This document shows, one piece after another, positions 2,797 through 40,660 of a DNA stretch of 50,439 nucleotides; position 1 is the first letter of the stretch; the number at the start of each line of letters is the position of its first letter. The notes under the pieces were generated by a model. The model ran no database searches. It saw only the letters and a list, made by a program, of their open reading frames with translations, and was not told where the DNA came from. The stretch comes from Candidatus Woesearchaeota archaeon CG07_land_8_20_14_0_80_44_23 (lineage in GTDB: Archaea > Nanobdellota > Nanobdellia > Woesearchaeales > 0-14-0-80-44-23): positions 1 to 50,439 of the forward strand of contig PEXD01000070.1 of the NCBI GenBank assembly GCA_002779235.1, written 5' to 3'. A program made the translations under genes and the position numbers.

Positions 2797-4452
2797 TTAT
2801 TTTCTGTTCAGATTTCCTTCTGCATGCGCCTTTTCCTCTGCCTTAACCCAGTCACCGTATTTCTCCTCAACAAATTCCTTCTCTTTTTGGATGCGCTCAT
2901 GCTTTTCCTGAAGCTCTTTTGGAATTACTCTCTTGTTTTTTGAGTAATAATCGTATACTGCTTCCACGAGCGCGTCGCTGGCCAGCACTGAGCAGTGTAT
3001 CTTTATTGGCGGAAGCCCGCCTAAAGAGTCTATTATCTCACTCTTGTTTATTTTATATGCCTCTTCAAGTGTTTTTCCTTTTGCAAGGTCAGTTATAACG
3101 CTGCTTGTTGCAATTGCAGCAACGCAGCCGAAGGTCTCAAATTTGATGTCAGTGATTATTTCTTCTCCCTTCTTGTTTTTTCCGACTTTTATATAGAGCC
3201 ACATTACGTCGCCGCAATTGTGAAGTGCAAATGCTTCAGAAGTGAAAGAATGCGCATCTTGAACTTCCAGATTATAAACTTTTCCTGCGTATGGCTGAGT
3301 CGCAATTCCTGTTATTGGCATGTAAAGATAATTGTTATCAAACCACGCCTTTTCAGATGGATATGACTTTGGCTTATACTTGATATTAAGAATCGAACAT
3401 AATCTTATCAATGAATCTCTTTGCCCCACATGAATTCTATAAGCTCTTTTATGTTTAATGCCTCTGACCTTTCTTTCCGGCTCTTTATAGATAGAAGGAG
3501 CAATCTTCTGTCTCAGAAGCAATATTTTTAGTTGTTGAGCTAGATTATAAGAAATTGTAGAATATCCTGCCCTCGCTCCGTCTCTATTTAAATTGACATA
3601 ACCATCACCTTTCCATAGCCCATAAATCAGGGATTTTTGCTTTTCAACAGGGAGATTCATAATAAAATCAGGAATCGCTTTATTTGCTGCTCCATTTCCA
3701 AACAATTTTTTGAAAAATCTTGCCAGTTTCGCGCTATACAGAGTTACTACAGCCGTTTTTCTTTTAGGAATTTCTCTGACAATCGCATCTAAACCAAACA
3801 GTTTTTTTGATATTTTTGTTATGTCTTCGACAATATCCTTCTCTTTTATATTTAGCGTGAATGAAATAAAAGTGCTGGAGGGTTTATCCTGAATGTTTCC
3901 TTCTGCCAAAAAATAGCCGAATAATCTCAACAAATCAGAATTAACAGGTATTTTTTCAGGGAGTTCTTTGCTCTTGAAGTCCCATTTTGGCTTTGGAATG
4001 TCAATCTTTATGTATTGCACATTTTTTTCTGCCTTTAGAATCGGATACAAGACAATATCTCCTTTTTTTAGCTGATAAGCATGATACCAGGCAGATGTTA
4101 ATTTTTTTCTGTATCTTGTTCTTAAAAAATTGTCTCCTTTAGGAATTTTTATTGCTAATACAAGATGTTCTGGCGTTAGATTAATTGTTCCCAATTTGTT
4201 TTTAATACATATTATTTCCGCTTTGTAATTCCTCTTTACAATTCTATTTACATTATGATATTGTCCGTCGTAAGATAAAACTTTATTCTTCTGTGAAATT
4301 TCATCAATGTCTTTTAAGTCATTGTTGATATGAATCTTTTGATTTGGCGGTAAGCATACGACATTACCCACTTTTCCCGTGCCATCAGGATTTTCCATCC
4401 TGCCATAATTATGCGGGCTCTTGAAGTGTTCCATAACTTTTTCTGTATACAT
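2797..4452 (-). CDS. iscU: IscU/NifU-type Fe-S scaffold precursor interrupted by an intein
   Basis: The exteins (aa 1-32 + 413-551) read MYTEKVMEHFKSPHNYGRMENPDGTGKVGNVV | CGDVMWLYIKV...FGCVAAIATSS...IKIHCSVLASDA. This is a contiguous IscU with its three conserved Cys residues. Confidence 0.9.
   Translation of the reverse strand: MYTEKVMEHFKSPHNYGRMENPDGTGKVGNVVCLPPNQKIHINNDLKDIDEISQKNKVLSYDGQYHNVNRIVKRNYKAEIICIKNKLGTINLTPEHLVLAIKIPKGDNFLRTRYRKKLTSAWYHAYQLKKGDIVLYPILKAEKNVQYIKIDIPKPKWDFKSKELPEKIPVNSDLLRLFGYFLAEGNIQDKPSSTFISFTLNIKEKDIVEDITKISKKLFGLDAIVREIPKRKTAVVTLYSAKLARFFKKLFGNGAANKAIPDFIMNLPVEKQKSLIYGLWKGDGYVNLNRDGARAGYSTISYNLAQQLKILLLRQKIAPSIYKEPERKVRGIKHKRAYRIHVGQRDSLIRLCSILNIKYKPKSYPSEKAWFDNNYLYMPITGIATQPYAGKVYNLEVQDAHSFTSEAFALHNCGDVMWLYIKVGKNKKGEEIITDIKFETFGCVAAIATSSVITDLAKGKTLEEAYKINKSEIIDSLGGLPPIKIHCSVLASDALVEAVYDYYSKNKRVIPKELQEKHERIQKEKEFVEEKYGDWVKAEEKAHAEGNLNRK
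3217..4356 (-). mobile_element. Full-length intein (380 aa) with LAGLIDADG homing-endonuclease domain
   Basis: It starts with Cys (CLPPNQ). Block B is LTPEHLV. It has two LAGLIDADG motifs (LFGYFLAEGNI, LIYGLWKGDGYV). It ends ...FALHN and is followed by a +1 Cys. The insert is visibly more AT-rich than the exteins. Confidence 0.85.
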
Positions 4453-35209: not shown

Positions 35210-36607
35210 TTATAGCGGATTGCTGAGCTCTTCCTTGTAGATTGATATCACATTGTGCTTTATCTTCTCAGGCATTGTTATCGCATTGTGGGGCTTCAGG
35301 AAGTTCTTGTATAGCTCGTCCTCCTTTGCCCTGGCCTTTTTCAGGAAATTCTTCTTGAATTCATTGATGAGATAGCCTGTTGCGCCGCGTTTGTATGCCA
35401 GGTAGAATGCGAAAAGCTGCTCATCCTTTCCAAGCCCTGTGAGGTCATATGGCTTTATCCTGTTATCTTTATCCTGGCTGCCCTTTGATGCGAACAGCGT
35501 ATAGAGCGGCTTGCTCTCCTTCCCGAACATGCTCTTTGTGAAGCCCACGCGCTTTGGGTCAATGCCGCATGCCACCAGGAAAGCATACATCCTCGCGCAC
35601 TTGGAGCAGTTGTGGCACCATCTTGAGTCAGCCCCCGCTTTATTGTCTGCAAAGCAGCTGGTCTGGTATTTTGCAAGCCGCTTATACCTGCTGTGGAGTA
35701 TTCTTGTTATTGCAAGCTCGTGCAGCGGCTCCACAACGCTCATTGAGGTGCACCTGTTCCTTGTGCTTATTGCAAGCATTGCCTTCAGGCGCATCATCCA
35801 TGTTGGCGACTGGTCAAACACCGGATTGGAAAAAAAGCCGTCTTTTGTGTAGTACCAGTCAGCACAGCTTCTTTCGTTTCCGAAAACTATGTAGGATGCG
35901 TGATGCTTTTTCATGAATGGTATGAGTGCAAGTGCATATTCTGTCAGTTGTGTGCTTGTCCCAAATTCAGAGGGTTCAATGTTCCAATTCTCCCAGTATC
36001 TTATGTTGCCGAGGCTGTAGTCAAGGTTGAGAATTTTCTTGTTGAATTCCTTCAAAAATTTCTTCTGAAGCTCTTTTTTGTGCTTGTTCTCAAACATGTC
36101 CTCTATGTCCGGCTCGCGGATGTATATTGGGAGAGGGTCAAGCCCTATCTCCCTGCAGACAGCATAGCTCAGCAAGCTGTCCTTACCGAAGGTAAAAGGG
36201 ATTATGCTCTTTTCCTCAACTGAAAAATCCAGGTCCGGCTTGTTTATCCTGTAATTCCTGAACTTGTATTTGACATTTAGGTACTGCTTTAGCACCTGTG
36301 AAACCGGCTTGCCGTCTGTCTCGCTGCAGTAGGATGCAGAGAGAAGATTCACCTCCCTGAAGAATGGCTCGAGAAGGGGGAATGAAGACCTGTATAAAAC
36401 CTCTTTTGAGCCGAGCATGAAGGGCAGCTGCATCCCTATCAGCCCTAAAATGTTGTCTGAGAGGAAGCGCTTTGAATTAAGGGGGAATGATTTCCAGACC
36501 GAGCGCGGGTATTTTAGCCTATATGTCCTGCCGTTTATTAAAATATTTATTCCGTTATGGGTCAGTCTATAACTTAAGTGTATGCGCTCATAGGACTGCT
36601 TATGCAT
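35210..36607 (-). CDS. PP-loop (adenine nucleotide alpha-hydrolase superfamily) ATP pyrophosphatase, unknown specificity
   Basis: 465 aa with a degenerate PP-loop IIPFTFGKDSLLSYA. The C-terminal Cys knuckle SCFADNKAGADSRWCHNCSKCARMY is reminiscent of QueC-type motifs. An AATTTAAAAAC box lies about 26 nt upstream of the ATG. Confidence 0.55.
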   Translation of the reverse strand: MHKQSYERIHLSYRLTHNGINILINGRTYRLKYPRSVWKSFPLNSKRFLSDNILGLIGMQLPFMLGSKEVLYRSSFPLLEPFFREVNLLSASYCSETDGKPVSQVLKQYLNVKYKFRNYRINKPDLDFSVEEKSIIPFTFGKDSLLSYAVCREIGLDPLPIYIREPDIEDMFENKHKKELQKKFLKEFNKKILNLDYSLGNIRYWENWNIEPSEFGTSTQLTEYALALIPFMKKHHASYIVFGNERSCADWYYTKDGFFSNPVFDQSPTWMMRLKAMLAISTRNRCTSMSVVEPLHELAITRILHSRYKRLAKYQTSCFADNKAGADSRWCHNCSKCARMYAFLVACGIDPKRVGFTKSMFGKESKPLYTLFASKGSQDKDNRIKPYDLTGLGKDEQLFAFYLAYKRGATGYLINEFKKNFLKKARAKEDELYKNFLKPHNAITMPEKIKHNVISIYKEELSNPL

Positions 36608-36661
36608 TTTTGATACGTTGCTGATGAATTTAAAAACAACAAAATTTCACTGGAATTCTGT

Positions 36662-36704
36662 GTGCAAAGAAATCGAAGATTTCTTGCACGAAGATTTCTT
36701 GCAC
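36662..36704 (-). terminator. Hairpin with duplicated arm, followed by a T-run on the minus strand
   Basis: GTGCAAAGAAATC (36662-36674) is the inverted partner of GAAGATTTCTTGCAC. That 15-mer is tandemly duplicated (36675-36689 and 36690-36704). On the minus strand the hairpin is followed by TTTTGTTGTTTTT. It lies about 95 nt after the ATP-grasp stop. Confidence 0.45.
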
Positions 36705-36800
36705 ATAAAATTAAAGATTTTGTTGTGCTCAAAAACCACTCGCTGCTGATTTGGCTTGTTCAAACATGCCACTCATCTGTAAGACGTGGTTTTTGACAAA

Positions 36801-37838
36801 TCAAATTTCTATAAGGCGAATCTTTTCCTCAACCCTCTTCTCAGAGTGCTGTCTTTCTATGGCATAATCAAGTATTTTTGTTATCAACTCATTGTAGCTT
36901 ATGCTGTTGGCAGCAGCTGCTCTTGTAAATGCTGTGTCCACAGGTCCGATGTCAGGATTTGGGTTGACCTCAAGGATGTAGGAGTTGTTGTCCTTGTCTA
37001 TCCTTATGTCTATCCTGGCATAGTCCTGGCATTCCATTACCTTGTATGCTGCAAGGGCAAGCCTCTTTATCCTGTTCTCAACATTTTTGGGAAGCTGCGC
37101 CGGGCAGACAGGTATTGTCTTCTGAAACTCCTCTGAATTGGGAATCCATTTTGCCTGGTATGAGCAGATTTTGTAGGCGCTCTCTGAGAAGTTGGTGAAC
37201 TGAAGCTCCTCTATGGGAAGGGCTATTGGGTCCCTGTTCCCAATTATGGAGACATTGACCTCCCTGCCTTCAATAAATTCTTCGGCAAGCGCGTTCTGCT
37301 TGTAAGTTTCTATAACGTATGCTATCCTTTTCCTCAGCTGCTCCTCATCCTTCACAACAGATTCGTTTGTTATCCCTATGCTTGCATCCTCATGTATTGG
37401 CTTGACTATCATTGGGAACTTCAGCGAGAGGTCCAGCTCGTCAGCAGGGCTCTTGAAAATCTGGAACCTTGCAGTCGGAAGCCCCATTGAAAGCAGAATC
37501 TGCTTTGTTTTCGCCTTGTCCAGGCATACTGAGAGCGTCAGAAAGTTGGAGCCGGTGTATGGAATCCCGACCATGTCAAGCATTGCAGGTATGTATGCCT
37601 CTGCAAGTATGTTGCTTCCTATTCCCTCGCCGAGGTTGAAAACCAGGTCAAGCTTGACAGCCCTGAGGTTCTCATAGAGGTTGTCGTCAACATGTATGAG
37701 CTTTACCTCATGCCCGGCAGCCCTTAAAGCATCCTCAACACAATGAACAGTGTTCAGAATATCCTGCTCTGCAATTATGTCAATAGGATTTCCCCTTGCT
37801 ATCTCGCTAACAACATTGTAAATTATTCCAACTTTCAT
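36801..37838 (-). CDS. ATP-grasp ligase, D-Ala-D-Ala ligase-like (paralog 2)
   Basis: 345 aa. It starts MKVGIIYNV and contains DLVFNLGEG, PYTGS, FPMIVKPIHEDASIG, EEFIEGREVNVSIIG, ARIDIRIDKDN and YILEVNPNPDIG. AGGAG SD upstream. Confidence 0.8.
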   Translation of the reverse strand: MKVGIIYNVVSEIARGNPIDIIAEQDILNTVHCVEDALRAAGHEVKLIHVDDNLYENLRAVKLDLVFNLGEGIGSNILAEAYIPAMLDMVGIPYTGSNFLTLSVCLDKAKTKQILLSMGLPTARFQIFKSPADELDLSLKFPMIVKPIHEDASIGITNESVVKDEEQLRKRIAYVIETYKQNALAEEFIEGREVNVSIIGNRDPIALPIEELQFTNFSESAYKICSYQAKWIPNSEEFQKTIPVCPAQLPKNVENRIKRLALAAYKVMECQDYARIDIRIDKDNNSYILEVNPNPDIGPVDTAFTRAAAANSISYNELITKILDYAIERQHSEKRVEEKIRLIEI

Positions 37839-37863
37839 CTGCTATATTCTCCTAATGCTTTTG

Positions 37864-38946
37864 TTATCTTGCCTTCCTGTTGGCCCGCCTTACATATTTC
37901 TTCAGGTCTTTTACTGCAAGCGAGTCCTTGAAATTGTGATTTATTCCTGCTCTTTTCATCGCATAATAAAGCACTGTGTTGATGAGCTGCTCGTACTTCA
38001 GCCCCATTGAATACCACATTGCCGGAAGATTGCTGTGCTCAATCGGGTCAGGGCCTATCCCCGGCAGCGGGTTTATCTCTAGGACATAGGGTCTGTTGTG
38101 CTTGCCGAGGCGCATGTCTATCCTGCACCAGTCGCGCACGTTCAGCGCCCTGTATGTCTGGATTGCGATTTTTTCTATCCTTCTCTTGAGGTAAGGCGAT
38201 ATCCTTGCGGGGCAGGACACAACGTTAATCGGGTTCTCCTTGGTATCCCACACCCACTTCGCCTCGTATGAATATATGGGATTTGCCTCAGGCGGGAGGC
38301 TGTCAAAGACAATCTCAAGGATGGGAAGCGCAATTGGCTCATCATTCCCGATAACCGCAACTGTGAGTTCTCTTCCTGAAAGGAATTCCTCCACAAGAGC
38401 CGGCTGCTCGTATGCGGCTATTATCTCAGAGAGCTTTTTTCTGAGTTCTGCATCGTTCTTCACGACGCAGTCATTCTTTATCCCCTTGCTCGAGCCCTCG
38501 TAAAGCGGCTTGACAATGAGAGGAAAATGGAGCTTTCTCAATAGCTTCTCGTCCGCCTTGTAAAAAACCTGGAATGCCGCCGTCGGAATCCTGTTTTGTA
38601 TGAGCATATCCTTTGTCATCGCCTTGTTCAGCCCTATTGAAAGGGTTGTCGGGTCCGATGCAAGGTAGGGTATCTCCAGGAGCTCAAGCATTGCAGGAAT
38701 CTGCGATTCCCTGCTCCTGCCCCTCAGCCCCTCTGCTATGTTGAAGACGAAGTCGGGCCTCATCTTCTTGAGCTTGATGTATGCCTTCTCATCGGCTTCA
38801 ATCCTTGCGGTCTTGAAGCCCGCCTTTCTTATTGCGCTCTCTATCGCGCTTATGGTGCTTTTCTCGTCGAATTCAGAGTAAAAGTCCCCAGGAAGGCCCT
38901 CTGCGGGCTTTTTCTTGAGGTTATAGGTTATCGCAACAAGTGTCAT
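37864..38946 (-). CDS. ATP-grasp ligase, D-Ala-D-Ala ligase-like (paralog 1)
   Basis: 360 aa, colinear with the downstream paralog: ITYNL, DFVFNIAEG, PYLAS, FPLIVKPLYEGSSKG, EEFLSGRELTVAVIG, CRIDMRLGKHN and YVLEINPLPGIG. Confidence 0.8.
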   Translation of the reverse strand: MTLVAITYNLKKKPAEGLPGDFYSEFDEKSTISAIESAIRKAGFKTARIEADEKAYIKLKKMRPDFVFNIAEGLRGRSRESQIPAMLELLEIPYLASDPTTLSIGLNKAMTKDMLIQNRIPTAAFQVFYKADEKLLRKLHFPLIVKPLYEGSSKGIKNDCVVKNDAELRKKLSEIIAAYEQPALVEEFLSGRELTVAVIGNDEPIALPILEIVFDSLPPEANPIYSYEAKWVWDTKENPINVVSCPARISPYLKRRIEKIAIQTYRALNVRDWCRIDMRLGKHNRPYVLEINPLPGIGPDPIEHSNLPAMWYSMGLKYEQLINTVLYYAMKRAGINHNFKDSLAVKDLKKYVRRANRKAR

Positions 38947-38951
38947 CTTTG

Positions 38952-38990
38952 AAATGGGTCAGAATGAAGTTTTCCCTGAAAGGCACCTCG
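38952..38990. repeat. Conserved non-coding element, copy A (core 1)
   Basis: AAATGGGTCAGAATGAAGTTTTCCCTGAAAGGCACCTCG. The 21-nt block TTTTCCC[T/G]GAAAGGCACCTCG matches copy B at 20 of 21 positions. It begins 6 nt from the ATP-grasp-1 start codon. Confidence 0.7.
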
Positions 38991-39083
38991 TTGGCGTTTG
39001 TTAATCACGTGTTATTTTTCTTTGCTTTTTGTTTTTAGTTTTTTGAAAAAATTGTTTTTTTCAATTCTGAAAGTAAGCATTAT

Positions 39084-39129
39084 CTATTTAAATATTTAAT
39101 TATTTTGAAAAAAATCTCGACGGGAAATT
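39084..39129. repeat. Conserved AT-rich block, copy A (core 2; candidate TATA region)
   Basis: CTATTTAAATATTTAATTATTTTGAAAA...CGACGGGAAATT is colinear with 40613-40660. Confidence 0.5.
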
Positions 39130-39272
39130 AAAATATTTTTTTGGGAAAATTGCATCGGCTCGGAAACAGCAAAATATCTTTGAAGATTTTTCCGTCGAGA
39201 AAAAAACTGCGGAAAAAAATCAGGATTGACAATATTAAAAAAATATTATTGAAAAAAATTATGCAGAAAAAT

Positions 39273-40346
39273 TTAGGGAAGGGGATACTCGTAAGTTTTT
39301 CCTTCGTAGTTCTTTAGGACTATTGTAGTCTTTCCGCTCTTCCTGTCTTTTTTCTCCCCAATAAGGTATGTTGGAAGCAGAGGTATCTTTCCACCGCCGC
39401 CCGGAGCGTCTATGACATAGTGGGGCACTGCCATTCCGCTGGTGAATCCCTGCAGCGAATGGATTATCTCAAGCCCTTTTGAAATCTCTGTCCTGAAGTG
39501 CCTGGTGCCCTTCACAATATCCGCCTGGTAAAGGTAATACGGCTTGACCCTCATGATGAGGAGCTTTTGCACCAGCTCCTTCATTATTTTCGGGTTGTCA
39601 TTCACCCCCTTGAGGAGAACTGACTGGTTTCCAAGGGCAATTCCGGCGTCTGCAAGCATGCTGCACGCATTAATGCTCTCTTTTGTTATCTCCTGAGGAT
39701 GGTTGAAGTGGGTGTTTATGTAGAGGGGATGGTATTTTGCGAGCATCCTGCAAAGTTTTTTTGTTATTCTCTGCGGAAGTGCGCAGGGCATCCTTGTGCC
39801 TATCCTGATTATCTGCACATGCTTTATGGCTCTTATCTGTTTCAAAATGAACTCAAGTTTATCGTTACTCAGCATCAAAGGGTCCCCCCCTGAGAGTATT
39901 ACATCCCTTATCTCCTTGTGGTTTTTTATATAATCAATCCCTTTCATTATCTGTGAAAGCGAGATTTCCCTGTCGGGATGCCCAACTCTTCTCTTTCTCG
40001 TGCAGAACCTGCAGTACATTGAGCACTGGTTTGAGCACAGGAACAGCACCCTGTCAGGGTATCTGTGGATAAGCCCGGGCACTGGGCTTTGTTCCTCCTC
40101 GTGCAGCGGGTCTGAAAGCCCTTCAGTGTCCTTGAGTTCCTGCTCGTCGGCAATGCACTGCTTCCACACTGCGTCACCCTTCTTTTTTATAAGCCCTAAA
40201 TAATAGGGATTAACCCTCAAAGGATATGCTGCGCCCACTTTCTTTATCTCTTCAATCTCCTTTGTTGAAAGATGAAACTTCGTCAGTGCCTTCTCTATAT
40301 TTTTTTCATCATATGACTCTGCCAAAAGTTTTTTCCATGCGTCCAT
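39273..40346 (-). CDS. kamA: KamA-family radical SAM / PLP aminomutase (lysine 2,3-aminomutase-like)
   Basis: CSMYCRFCTRKRR (CxxxCxxC), ILSGGDPL, PYYLYQADIVKGTRHFRT and IDAPGGGGKIP (PLP lysine). It is 357 aa and lacks the long C-terminal domain of clostridial KamA. Confidence 0.88.
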   Translation of the reverse strand: MDAWKKLLAESYDEKNIEKALTKFHLSTKEIEEIKKVGAAYPLRVNPYYLGLIKKKGDAVWKQCIADEQELKDTEGLSDPLHEEEQSPVPGLIHRYPDRVLFLCSNQCSMYCRFCTRKRRVGHPDREISLSQIMKGIDYIKNHKEIRDVILSGGDPLMLSNDKLEFILKQIRAIKHVQIIRIGTRMPCALPQRITKKLCRMLAKYHPLYINTHFNHPQEITKESINACSMLADAGIALGNQSVLLKGVNDNPKIMKELVQKLLIMRVKPYYLYQADIVKGTRHFRTEISKGLEIIHSLQGFTSGMAVPHYVIDAPGGGGKIPLLPTYLIGEKKDRKSGKTTIVLKNYEGKTYEYPLP

Positions 40347-40521
40347 ATTATTTTCATTCCTTTGTTATTAGAAATTCAATTTTTGCAATCACTCTGCATC
40401 CTGCATATGCGTGGTGCGTATAGATTTAACAGTCGGCAAACTCGTCTTGTTCATTTCGCAGCAAATTCTTGCGGCACTGACTTTTCCAAAATTACAAAAA
40501 TTATAAGAAAATATCATCTTA

Positions 40522-40559
40522 AAATGGGTTTAGAAAGATTTTCCCGGAAAGGCACCTCG
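40522..40559. repeat. Conserved non-coding element, copy B (core 1)
   Basis: AAATGGGTTTAGAAAGATTTTCCCGGAAAGGCACCTCG lies about 175 nt upstream of the kamA ATG. It is the paralog of 38952-38990. Confidence 0.7.
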
Positions 40560-40612
40560 CTGACATTGAATTTTTTTTCTTTTAAATTTTTATATAAGCA
40601 GTATATGTGGAA

Positions 40613-40660
40613 CTTATTTAAATAATTAATCATTTTTGAAAATTCACGAGGAAAAAAATT
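40613..40660. repeat. Conserved AT-rich block, copy B (core 2)
   Basis: CTTATTTAAATAATTAATCATTTTTGAAAA...CACGAGGAAAAAAATT is colinear with 39084-39129. Confidence 0.5.

Follow-up and report, generated by a model that had tools for sequence, protein, structure and literature searches.

Contig PEXD01000070.1 of Candidatus Woesearchaeota archaeon CG07_land_8_20_14_0_80_44_23 (assembly GCA_002779235.1, positions 1-50,439) carries a locus of four minus-strand genes running in one direction. They encode a KamA-family radical S-adenosylmethionine (SAM)/pyridoxal phosphate (PLP) aminomutase, two ATP-grasp ligases resembling D-alanine-D-alanine ligase (Ddl), here called AGa and AGb, and a PP-loop protein, P4. 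The whole stretch of 50,439 nt is referred to as the window. The locus is real. It is both conserved and widespread, is uncharacterised, and consists of members of known enzyme superfamilies together with one unnamed family, that of P4. We propose that it constitutes a ribosome-independent pathway building a small beta-lysine-containing pseudopeptide, a reading that we regard as evenly balanced between right and wrong. The genes are as follows.

39273-40346, minus strand: KamA-family radical-SAM/PLP aminomutase (357 aa), predicted lysine 2,3-aminomutase making beta-lysine
37864-38946, minus strand: AGa, Ddl-like ATP-grasp ligase, KamA-coupled (360 aa)
36801-37838, minus strand: AGb, second Ddl-like ATP-grasp ligase, ancient AGa paralog (345 aa)
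35210-36607, minus strand: P4, QueC-fold PP-loop protein of an unnamed family distantly related to MurL (465 aa), predicted to adenylate a carboxylate

An open reading frame (ORF) check found all four genes where a preliminary description of this DNA had placed them, with the spacers that it gave, 326 nt (KamA-AGa), 25 nt (AGa-AGb) and 193 nt (AGb-P4). The window is a DPANN (Woesearchaeota-type) contig whose nearest proteins come from Woesearchaeota metagenome-assembled genomes (MAGs), and the locus is surrounded by archaeal housekeeping genes (GyrA, primase, Hef, Nop56/fibrillarin, SUF/NifU/NifS). The gene order Hef-KamA-AGa-AGb-P4-LemA-HtpX-primase-GyrA is kept in relatives with P4 identities of 62-74%: L092 and L095 have the full gene set, and L001 and L012 keep the order over the part covered by their contigs. 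Recurrence, on which the preliminary description had made its pathway depend, was thus found in close relatives and, widely, in the form of two modules. Within the 50-kb window no gene for a GNAT, AblB, an EpmA-like protein, a non-ribosomal peptide synthetase (NRPS), kamDE, kdd or kce was found, nor one for a Mur ligase, MraY/MurG or a flippase, nor one for aIF5A or deoxyhypusine synthase (DHS). The earlier statement that AblB, EpmA, kamDE, NRPS and Mur partners are missing therefore holds for these 50 kb only.

The aminomutase and the paired ligases

The window KamA contains every motif that had been quoted for it (CSMYCRFCTRKR, SGGDPL, YQAD and IDAPGGGGK) and aligned to the clostridial lysine 2,3-aminomutase 2A5H with an E-value of 7.7e-116. 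By this alignment it keeps Asp at both positions that contact the lysine epsilon-ammonium group (D293 and D330, 2A5H numbering), as had been claimed. The PLP-position lysine corresponds to K337 of 2A5H and lies in IDAPGGGGK, the carboxylate-binding Arg134 lies in CTRKR, and the radical-SAM motif CxxxCxxC reads CSMYCRFC (residues 108-115). Both lysine-specifying Asp residues were also present in all ten of the cluster-linked KamAs examined; their counterparts in glutamate 2,3-aminomutase are, we assume from the literature, Lys and Asn. In Pfam the protein matched Radical_SAM and LAM_C. Among NCBIfam models it passed only the KamA subfamily model TIGR00238 (310 against a cut-off of 199) and stayed below the equivalog cut-offs for AblA (482/525 bits), glutamate 2,3-aminomutase (447/650), arginine aminomutase (342/600) and EpmB (249/369), with AblA as the best-scoring equivalog. 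The KamA family includes EpmB. Judged by its conserved residues, KamA is most likely a lysine 2,3-aminomutase giving beta-lysine.

AGa and AGb share 40% identity (E 1e-87), in line with their earlier designation as clear paralogs, and both matched Pfam Dala_Dala_lig_C (AGa with 136 bits). Their best scores against Ddl models were 184 and 189 bits, respectively, versus a cut-off of 243, and all equivalogs were far below threshold. Residues were compared by alignment in E. coli DdlB numbering. The ATP- and Mg-binding residues K97, K144, E180, K215, R255, D257, E270 and N272 are all kept in AGa, AGb and the clade of ligases that usually partners P4, which argues for active ATP-grasp ligases that belong to the Ddl-like branch without being Ddl itself. 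The D-Ala determinants of Ddl that were checked comprise the E15/S150/Y216 triad, H63, S281/L282 and the N-terminal GGxSxE motif. At these sites AGa carries H63E, Y216W and L282N. The signature of AGb is S150A, Y216W, G276D, S281T and L282A, and both ligases have H63E and Y216W and replace GGxSxE by YN...E(F/Q)D. Scores below every Ddl cut-off and the replaced D-Ala-binding residues led us to reject genuine Ddl as an identity for either ligase, so that neither falls within the Ddl group whose membership the preliminary description had named as decisive. To judge by these residues, the substrates of AGa and AGb differ from those of Ddl. Automated annotation names these ligases D-alanine-D-alanine ligase.

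KamA-fused and KamA-adjacent ligases belong to the AGa clade, and AGb forms a separate clade. Every locus with two or more ligases (46/46) had one AGa-type and at least one AGb-type protein; the duplication is therefore ancient and the pair obligate, and with such a pair two amide bonds would be formed in succession. KamA and an AGa-type ligase form one fusion protein in at least five loci (L015, L017, L074, L126, L134). Genes for the AGa homologs nearest in sequence (53-59% identity) lie directly downstream of KamA. In Bathyarchaeia the two genes overlap and in Nezhaarchaeales they abut; no P4 was found near these gene pairs. The fusions argue for a dedicated joint function and, with the overlaps, make the link between KamA and AGa the firmest that we draw.

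A metagenome scan with the AGa-clade alignment as query gave 80 loci. KamA was encoded in 42 of them, KamA together with at least two ligases in 29, and a 164-aa GNAT in 32, in 22 of these alongside KamA; the GNAT was also found in Nezhaarchaeales. The usual layouts were AGa>AGb>GNAT>KamA> and GNAT>KamA>AGa>AGb<. KamA-AGa-AGb cassettes range over Bathyarchaeia, Nezhaarchaeales, Asgard and DPANN archaea and many uncultured bacteria. With a GNAT in the widespread cassette, the pathway lies closer to acylation chemistry of the AblA/AblB type than had been assumed. P4 is missing from nearly all KamA-AGa-AGb-GNAT cassettes and is thus not needed for the core chemistry.

On plasmid pTHIMO01 of Thioflavicoccus mobilis (L097, 3650-9131), an AGa-like ATP-grasp gene lies beside genes for a KamA-family protein, a 2,4-diaminobutyrate (DAB) transaminase, SbnA and an SbnB-like cyclodeaminase, so that one ligase is surrounded by three diamino-acid suppliers. 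Thorarchaeota loci add a class-III aminotransferase gene and a 2,4-diaminopentanoate-dehydrogenase-like gene. In L116, L117, L120, L122 and L125 a DHS-family gene and a pyruvoyl arginine decarboxylase gene precede AGa>AGb>GNAT; no KamA was found in these five loci, where the polyamine genes hold its position, and an agmatinase-like fragment was also identified, by eye only. Taken as side evidence, these loci make diamino acids or diamines candidate substrates of the ligases. In four metagenome loci an M24 peptidase gene follows KamA. Rhizobial symbiosis plasmids encode ATP-grasp proteins that are nearer to AGa (32-34% identity, 160-188 bits) than genuine Ddl is; in Sinorhizobium fredii NGR234 (pNGR234a, L096) the AGa-like gene adjoins a CapA-family gene.

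The PP-loop protein P4 and its gene contexts

P4 had no Pfam match, and its sole NCBIfam match was MurL (model NF041275, E 2.4e-9, residues 236-451), with 36 bits against a cut-off of 700. All 26 aligned members of the P4 family matched MurL and nothing else, the best with an E-value of 1.1e-12. At the level of sequence, P4 is a distant MurL homolog outside the MurL family. An assignment as MurL ortholog was rejected at 36 bits, and ten distant full-length family members were likewise not MurL; no Mur ligase of the MurD2 type, as found in the MurL gene context, was present in the window or in related loci. A profile search with P4 returned 1,338 clusters at 50% identity, 188 of them at E<=1e-30. 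Among the best 150 of the 1,338 matches, no domain fusion was informative as to a nitrogen donor or partner.

The AlphaFold2 model of P4 (pLDDT 93.3, pTM 0.93) was compared with PDB structures by Foldseek. The best fold matches were the QueC structures 2pg3 and 3bl5 (probability 1.00, TM 0.65-0.72 on target), followed by the QueC-like YcfA and Cap9 and then by other PP-loop ATPases. The family has an invariant loop, [ST]FGK[DE]S, with one deviation from SGGxDS, and four invariant cysteines (C318, C331, C334 and C337 in 26 sequences). Structure model, fold matches, loop and cysteines agree with what had been said of P4 before, namely that it is a PP-loop enzyme whose Cys knuckle resembles that of QueC. 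No QueC match was found in Pfam or NCBIfam, and no queuosine or archaeosine genes lie nearby.

MurL adenylates and epimerises a terminal residue (PMC5808125, PMC8788868); no newer mechanistic work on it was found in the literature searched. P4 most likely adenylates a carboxylate, a prediction that we base on its PP-loop fold, AMP formation by MurL and the chemistry of QueC. What may follow is less clear-cut. Amidation is favoured by the QueC fold, by the precedent of the N-acetylglutaminylglutamine amide (NAGGN) pathway and by the fact that beta-lysine has no stereocentre beside its carboxylate. Epimerisation is favoured by the relationship to MurL and by the constant company of an N-acylating enzyme. 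The proposal that P4 amidates or cyclises a carboxylate thus stays plausible, but epimerisation is equally plausible, since MurL is its sole sequence relative.

P4 relatives are encoded in at least 288 species-level genomes, mainly of Bathyarchaeia, Thor-, Hermod- and Borrarchaeota and DPANN, and in a few bacteria of the candidate phyla radiation (CPR). In 60 of 79 P4 loci a Ddl-like ligase of the AGa family lies within 600 bp; KamA lies within 3 kb in seven, and tandem P4 paralogs occur in ten. The dominant architecture is a ThrC-like PALP enzyme, P4, a ligase and a GNAT, which differs from the set in the window as first described. The ThrC-like enzyme (NF004996, 382 bits) was encoded in 47 of 82 P4 loci and the GNAT in 39, and in L018 an ATP-grasp domain is fused to a GNAT. 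The usual partner ligase of P4 forms a sister clade of AGa and has the pocket signature T216, F282. In three DPANN loci (L036, L043, L058) tandem P4 paralogs occur without an ATP-grasp gene and are followed by a gene for a DUF1611 protein; we take this family to include the D-glutamate N-acetyltransferase DgcN. An ATP-grasp enzyme, a GNAT or a DUF1611 protein, each N-acylating, was always found beside P4.

KamA and AGa were joined to P4 in DPANN only, in at least seven gene orders, some with 4-nt overlaps. The linkage spans Woese-, Iain-, Nano- and Aenigmatarchaeota and includes AGa-P4-KamA in an Iainarchaeum (L002), a KamA-AGa fusion gene with P4 directly after it (L017, L074) and the order KamA-AGa-P4 (L090). 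The four genes are therefore not one ancestral unit, a point on which the preliminary description needs correcting: the widespread cassette has a GNAT, and P4 occurred in 1 of 75 such metagenome loci. Unlinking of the PP-loop gene, which had been named as a weakness of the proposal, is in part the case by this count, yet P4 is linked to KamA and AGa in DPANN. A functional link among the genes, also claimed before, is borne out by the KamA-AGa fusions, the 46/46 pairing of AGa with AGb and the ligase near P4 in 60/79 loci.

Two further observations concern P4 loci. In one Bathyarchaeia subgroup (L019, L020, L023-L025, L028, L030, L032, L035, L037 and L040) the order P4>ligase>GNAT is followed by a gene for a GGACT/AIG2-like gamma-glutamyl(amine) cyclotransferase. 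Most of these loci have an opposite-strand Amidohydro_3 gene next, and eight also have an enolase-superfamily racemase-like gene. Such neighbours may be lineage synteny or may hint at gamma-glutamyl or D-amino-acid chemistry. The MAGs that carry the DPANN-type P4/KamA loci L012, L017, L026, L056 and L081 are titled 'uncultured Methanosarcinales archaeon', yet their gene content and nearest relatives look DPANN, and the titles may be mis-assignments.

Proposed pathway and alternatives

In the proposed pathway, KamA would turn L-lysine into beta-lysine, as its conserved residues suggest. AGa would take beta-lysine as one substrate and form an amide bond via an acyl-phosphate; here the gene fusions provide the link, and the chemistry is that expected of the enzyme. 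AGb, the ancient partner ligase with a different pocket, would add a second amide bond. P4 would then adenylate a free carboxylate of the product, as its fold and its relationship to MurL suggest, and either amidate it with ammonia, in the manner of QueC and AsnO, or epimerise the terminal residue, in the manner of MurL. Because a GNAT holds the slot of P4 in most other organisms, P4 is best read as an alternative tailoring step. For the product, our best guess is a small pseudopeptide that contains beta-lysine and bears a modified carboxylate, which might tentatively be seen as a cytoplasmic solute or a polycation-like metabolite.

Several findings weigh against this pathway. P4 was present in only 1 of 75 metagenome loci with the KamA-AGa-AGb-GNAT cassette and once among the 80 loci of the AGa-clade scan, and the window does not have the GNAT that is present in most cassettes. 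Polyamine genes replace KamA in five loci, so the amine substrate of the ligases may not be specifically beta-lysine. The MurL score of P4 is only 36 bits (cut-off 700) and the Foldseek E-value to QueC is about 1e-3; the reaction proposed for P4 is carried over from distant relatives. As far as contig and MAG names tell, many of the samples seem to have come from freshwater, groundwater or peat, which lends no support to a role as salt-stress osmolyte. An osmolyte role was also considered from habitat and found no support, the names being mostly groundwater, peat and freshwater sediment.

The locus could instead consist of two independent modules side by side, in which an acylated beta-lysine compound would come from KamA, AGa and AGb on their own and P4 would merely be a neighbour from another pathway, one that for example epimerises or amidates some other N-acyl amino acid with ATP. 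Such an arrangement would account for the absence of P4 from 74 of the 75 KamA/AGa/AGb metagenome loci, for the separate context in which it mostly occurs (ThrC-like PLP enzyme, ligase, GNAT), for tandem P4 genes without any ligase in DPANN and CPR loci (L043, L058, L060, L061, L068, L087) and for the 193 nt between P4 and AGb in the window. However, P4 adjoins KamA and/or AGa across DPANN phyla in varied orders and with overlaps (L002, L017, L074), and its usual partner ligase belongs to the sister clade of AGa. We consider two unrelated modules unlikely.

It is improbable that the ligases modify a protein. AGa and AGb would then attach beta-lysine, or a polyamine where the DHS-family and arginine decarboxylase genes replace KamA, to aIF5A or EF-P; AGa might for instance, as an ATP-grasp counterpart of EpmA, place beta-lysine on a lysine of either protein or of some other one, and AGb, the GNAT or P4 might elaborate the adduct. 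KamA is of the EpmB family, ATP-grasp protein ligases such as RimK and TTL exist, and the five loci with polyamine genes beside AGa-AGb-GNAT and the four with an M24 peptidase after KamA would fit. An EF-P linkage was rejected, however, as no efp gene or EF-P homolog was found in any of about 180 loci. Genes for aIF5A or DHS were likewise not found in the window, its KamA stays under the EpmB cut-off (249 vs 369), and the Ddl-like clade to which the ligases belong is known to act on small molecules. If protein modification were true, DPANN and TACK archaea and many bacteria without EpmA would carry out the essential modification of IF5A/EF-P by a hitherto unrecognised ATP-grasp route.

A cell-envelope peptide resembling a pseudomurein or murein stem peptide, in which P4 would provide a D-residue as MurL does in Xanthomonas, is very improbable. 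The Ddl-like ligases, the relationship of P4 to MurL and glycosyltransferases encoded elsewhere in the window are compatible with it. Against it, Mur-type ligases, MraY/MurG and flippase genes were found neither in the window nor in related loci, the archaeal pseudomurein ATP-grasp model gave the ligases only 60 bits against a cut-off of 500, the D-Ala-binding residues are absent, and the cassette is set among housekeeping genes. Ordinary metabolism, with KamA serving lysine fermentation or synthesis of the osmolyte Nε-acetyl-beta-lysine and with genuine D-Ala-D-Ala ligases, is hardly credible: AblA as best equivalog of KamA and the automated ligase labels would agree with it, but kamDE, kdd, kce and ablB are missing from the window, the ligases are below every Ddl cut-off and do not have H63, Y216, L282 or GGxSxE, and KamA is fused to ligases.

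Spacers, known systems and significance

The spacers of the locus and the region upstream of KamA contain the following elements.

38947-39272, minus strand: KamA-AGa spacer, with an AT-rich promoter-like element at 39085-39112 and the conserved leader CGAGGTGCCTTTCAGGGAAAA at 38970-38998
40518-40642, minus strand: second AGa promoter/leader copy, some 170 nt upstream of KamA, sharing repeat families D6 and D7 with the KamA-AGa spacer
36608-36800, minus strand: AGb-P4 spacer, with a perfect tandem 15-nt repeat at 36674-36703 and a partial inverted copy, family D19

The promoter-like box of AGa and its leader (also given as CGAGGTGCCTTTCNGGGAAA) are conserved in L092 and L095. The AGb-P4 spacer was not conserved in L012 or L001. 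Of the conserved spacer elements proposed earlier, the AGa leader thus stands and those of the AGb-P4 spacer do not. The two promoter/leader copies are 86% identical in each of D6 (29 nt) and D7 (28 nt) and 72% identical over the aligned regions. The duplicated motif was found only in contigs of this organism among 95 loci; in L092 and L095 the Hef-KamA spacer is half as long and has no second leader copy. Duplication of the leader upstream of KamA suggests that KamA and AGa are co-regulated. The 15-nt direct repeat of the AGb-P4 spacer (CGAAGATTTCTTGCA, two copies) may be the binding site of a regulator. The spacers had no Rfam match at E<=1, and a riboswitch or other known RNA was rejected on this ground. 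A 42-aa ORF (MIFSYNFCNFGKVSAARICCEMNKTSLPTVKSIRTTHMQDAE, 40389-40517, minus strand) starts exactly at the end of the duplicated AGa leader. It was rejected as a conserved small gene or carrier peptide, being missing from L092 and L095. Elsewhere in the window (2797-4452, minus strand) a gene for a NifU-like Fe-S scaffold protein is split by an intein with a LAGLIDADG homing-endonuclease domain, as seen from matches to Pfam NifU_N, Intein_splicing and LAGLIDADG_3.

The literature searched, the coverage of which was incomplete, contained no characterised pathway corresponding to the gene set, in agreement with its first designation as undescribed, and no description of a pathway combining KamA with an ATP-grasp enzyme. 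The nearest systems share parts of its logic, but it is a member of none of them. In the AblA/AblB pathway to Nε-acetyl-beta-lysine in methanogens, a KamA-family aminomutase likewise precedes acylation of beta-lysine, and a GNAT lies beside KamA in most related cassettes; the window, however, has no GNAT, has two ATP-grasp ligases and a PP-loop enzyme instead or in addition, and its KamA scores 482 against the AblA cut-off of 525. PylB and PylC resemble the locus in that a radical-SAM enzyme isomerises lysine and a Ddl-like ATP-grasp enzyme ligates the product. They differ in that KamA is a PLP aminomutase, not a PylB-type mutase, and pylD and pylS are missing here; no PylC chain was among the PDB sequence matches at E<=1e-5. 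EpmB and EpmA also let a KamA-family enzyme supply beta-lysine to a dedicated ligase, but the ligase here is of the ATP-grasp type, not a LysRS paralog, no efp gene is linked, and KamA is below the EpmB cut-off.

Other parallels concern P4. The NAGGN pathway of Sinorhizobium and Pseudomonas employs the GNAT/ligase Ngg, after which AsnO amidates the C-terminal carboxylate (PMC8070244). N-acylation and peptide bond formation followed by ATP-dependent amidation of a terminal carboxylate would be alike in logic, also with respect to the fusion of ATP-grasp and GNAT in L018, although Ngg was not among the best 25 of 51 families matched by that fusion. P4 differs in having a QueC/MurL-like and not an asparagine-synthetase fold and no glutaminase domain, and the amino acid here would be beta-lysine or the product of the ThrC-like enzyme, whereas NAGGN uses glutamine. 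MurD2 and MurL provide the case of a ligase that adds an amino acid, followed by a MurL-type enzyme that activates the terminal carboxylate with ATP; the partner ligase of P4 is an ATP-grasp enzyme, not a Mur ligase, there is no nucleotide-sugar context, and the archaeal host has no murein genes in the window. In structure, the P4 core comes closest to QueC (7-cyano-7-deazaguanine synthase), both having a PP-loop and a four-Cys knuckle, and the course of QueC chemistry from carboxylate to adenylate to amide is a plausible model for P4. P4 is twice the size of QueC, however, has extra N- and C-terminal domains and no sequence-level match.

The label 'D-alanine-D-alanine ligase' in organisms without murein likely misleads metabolic reconstructions, and the proteins in which KamA is fused to an ATP-grasp ligase are ready biochemical targets. 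If the beta-lysine pathway is true, the locus would give a first functional handle on the P4 family, which has no Pfam model, as an archaeal counterpart of the ATP-dependent epimerase MurL. It would also represent an undescribed and widespread family of metabolites, in which a conserved pair of Ddl-like ligases would assemble pseudopeptides of beta-lysine or diamines.

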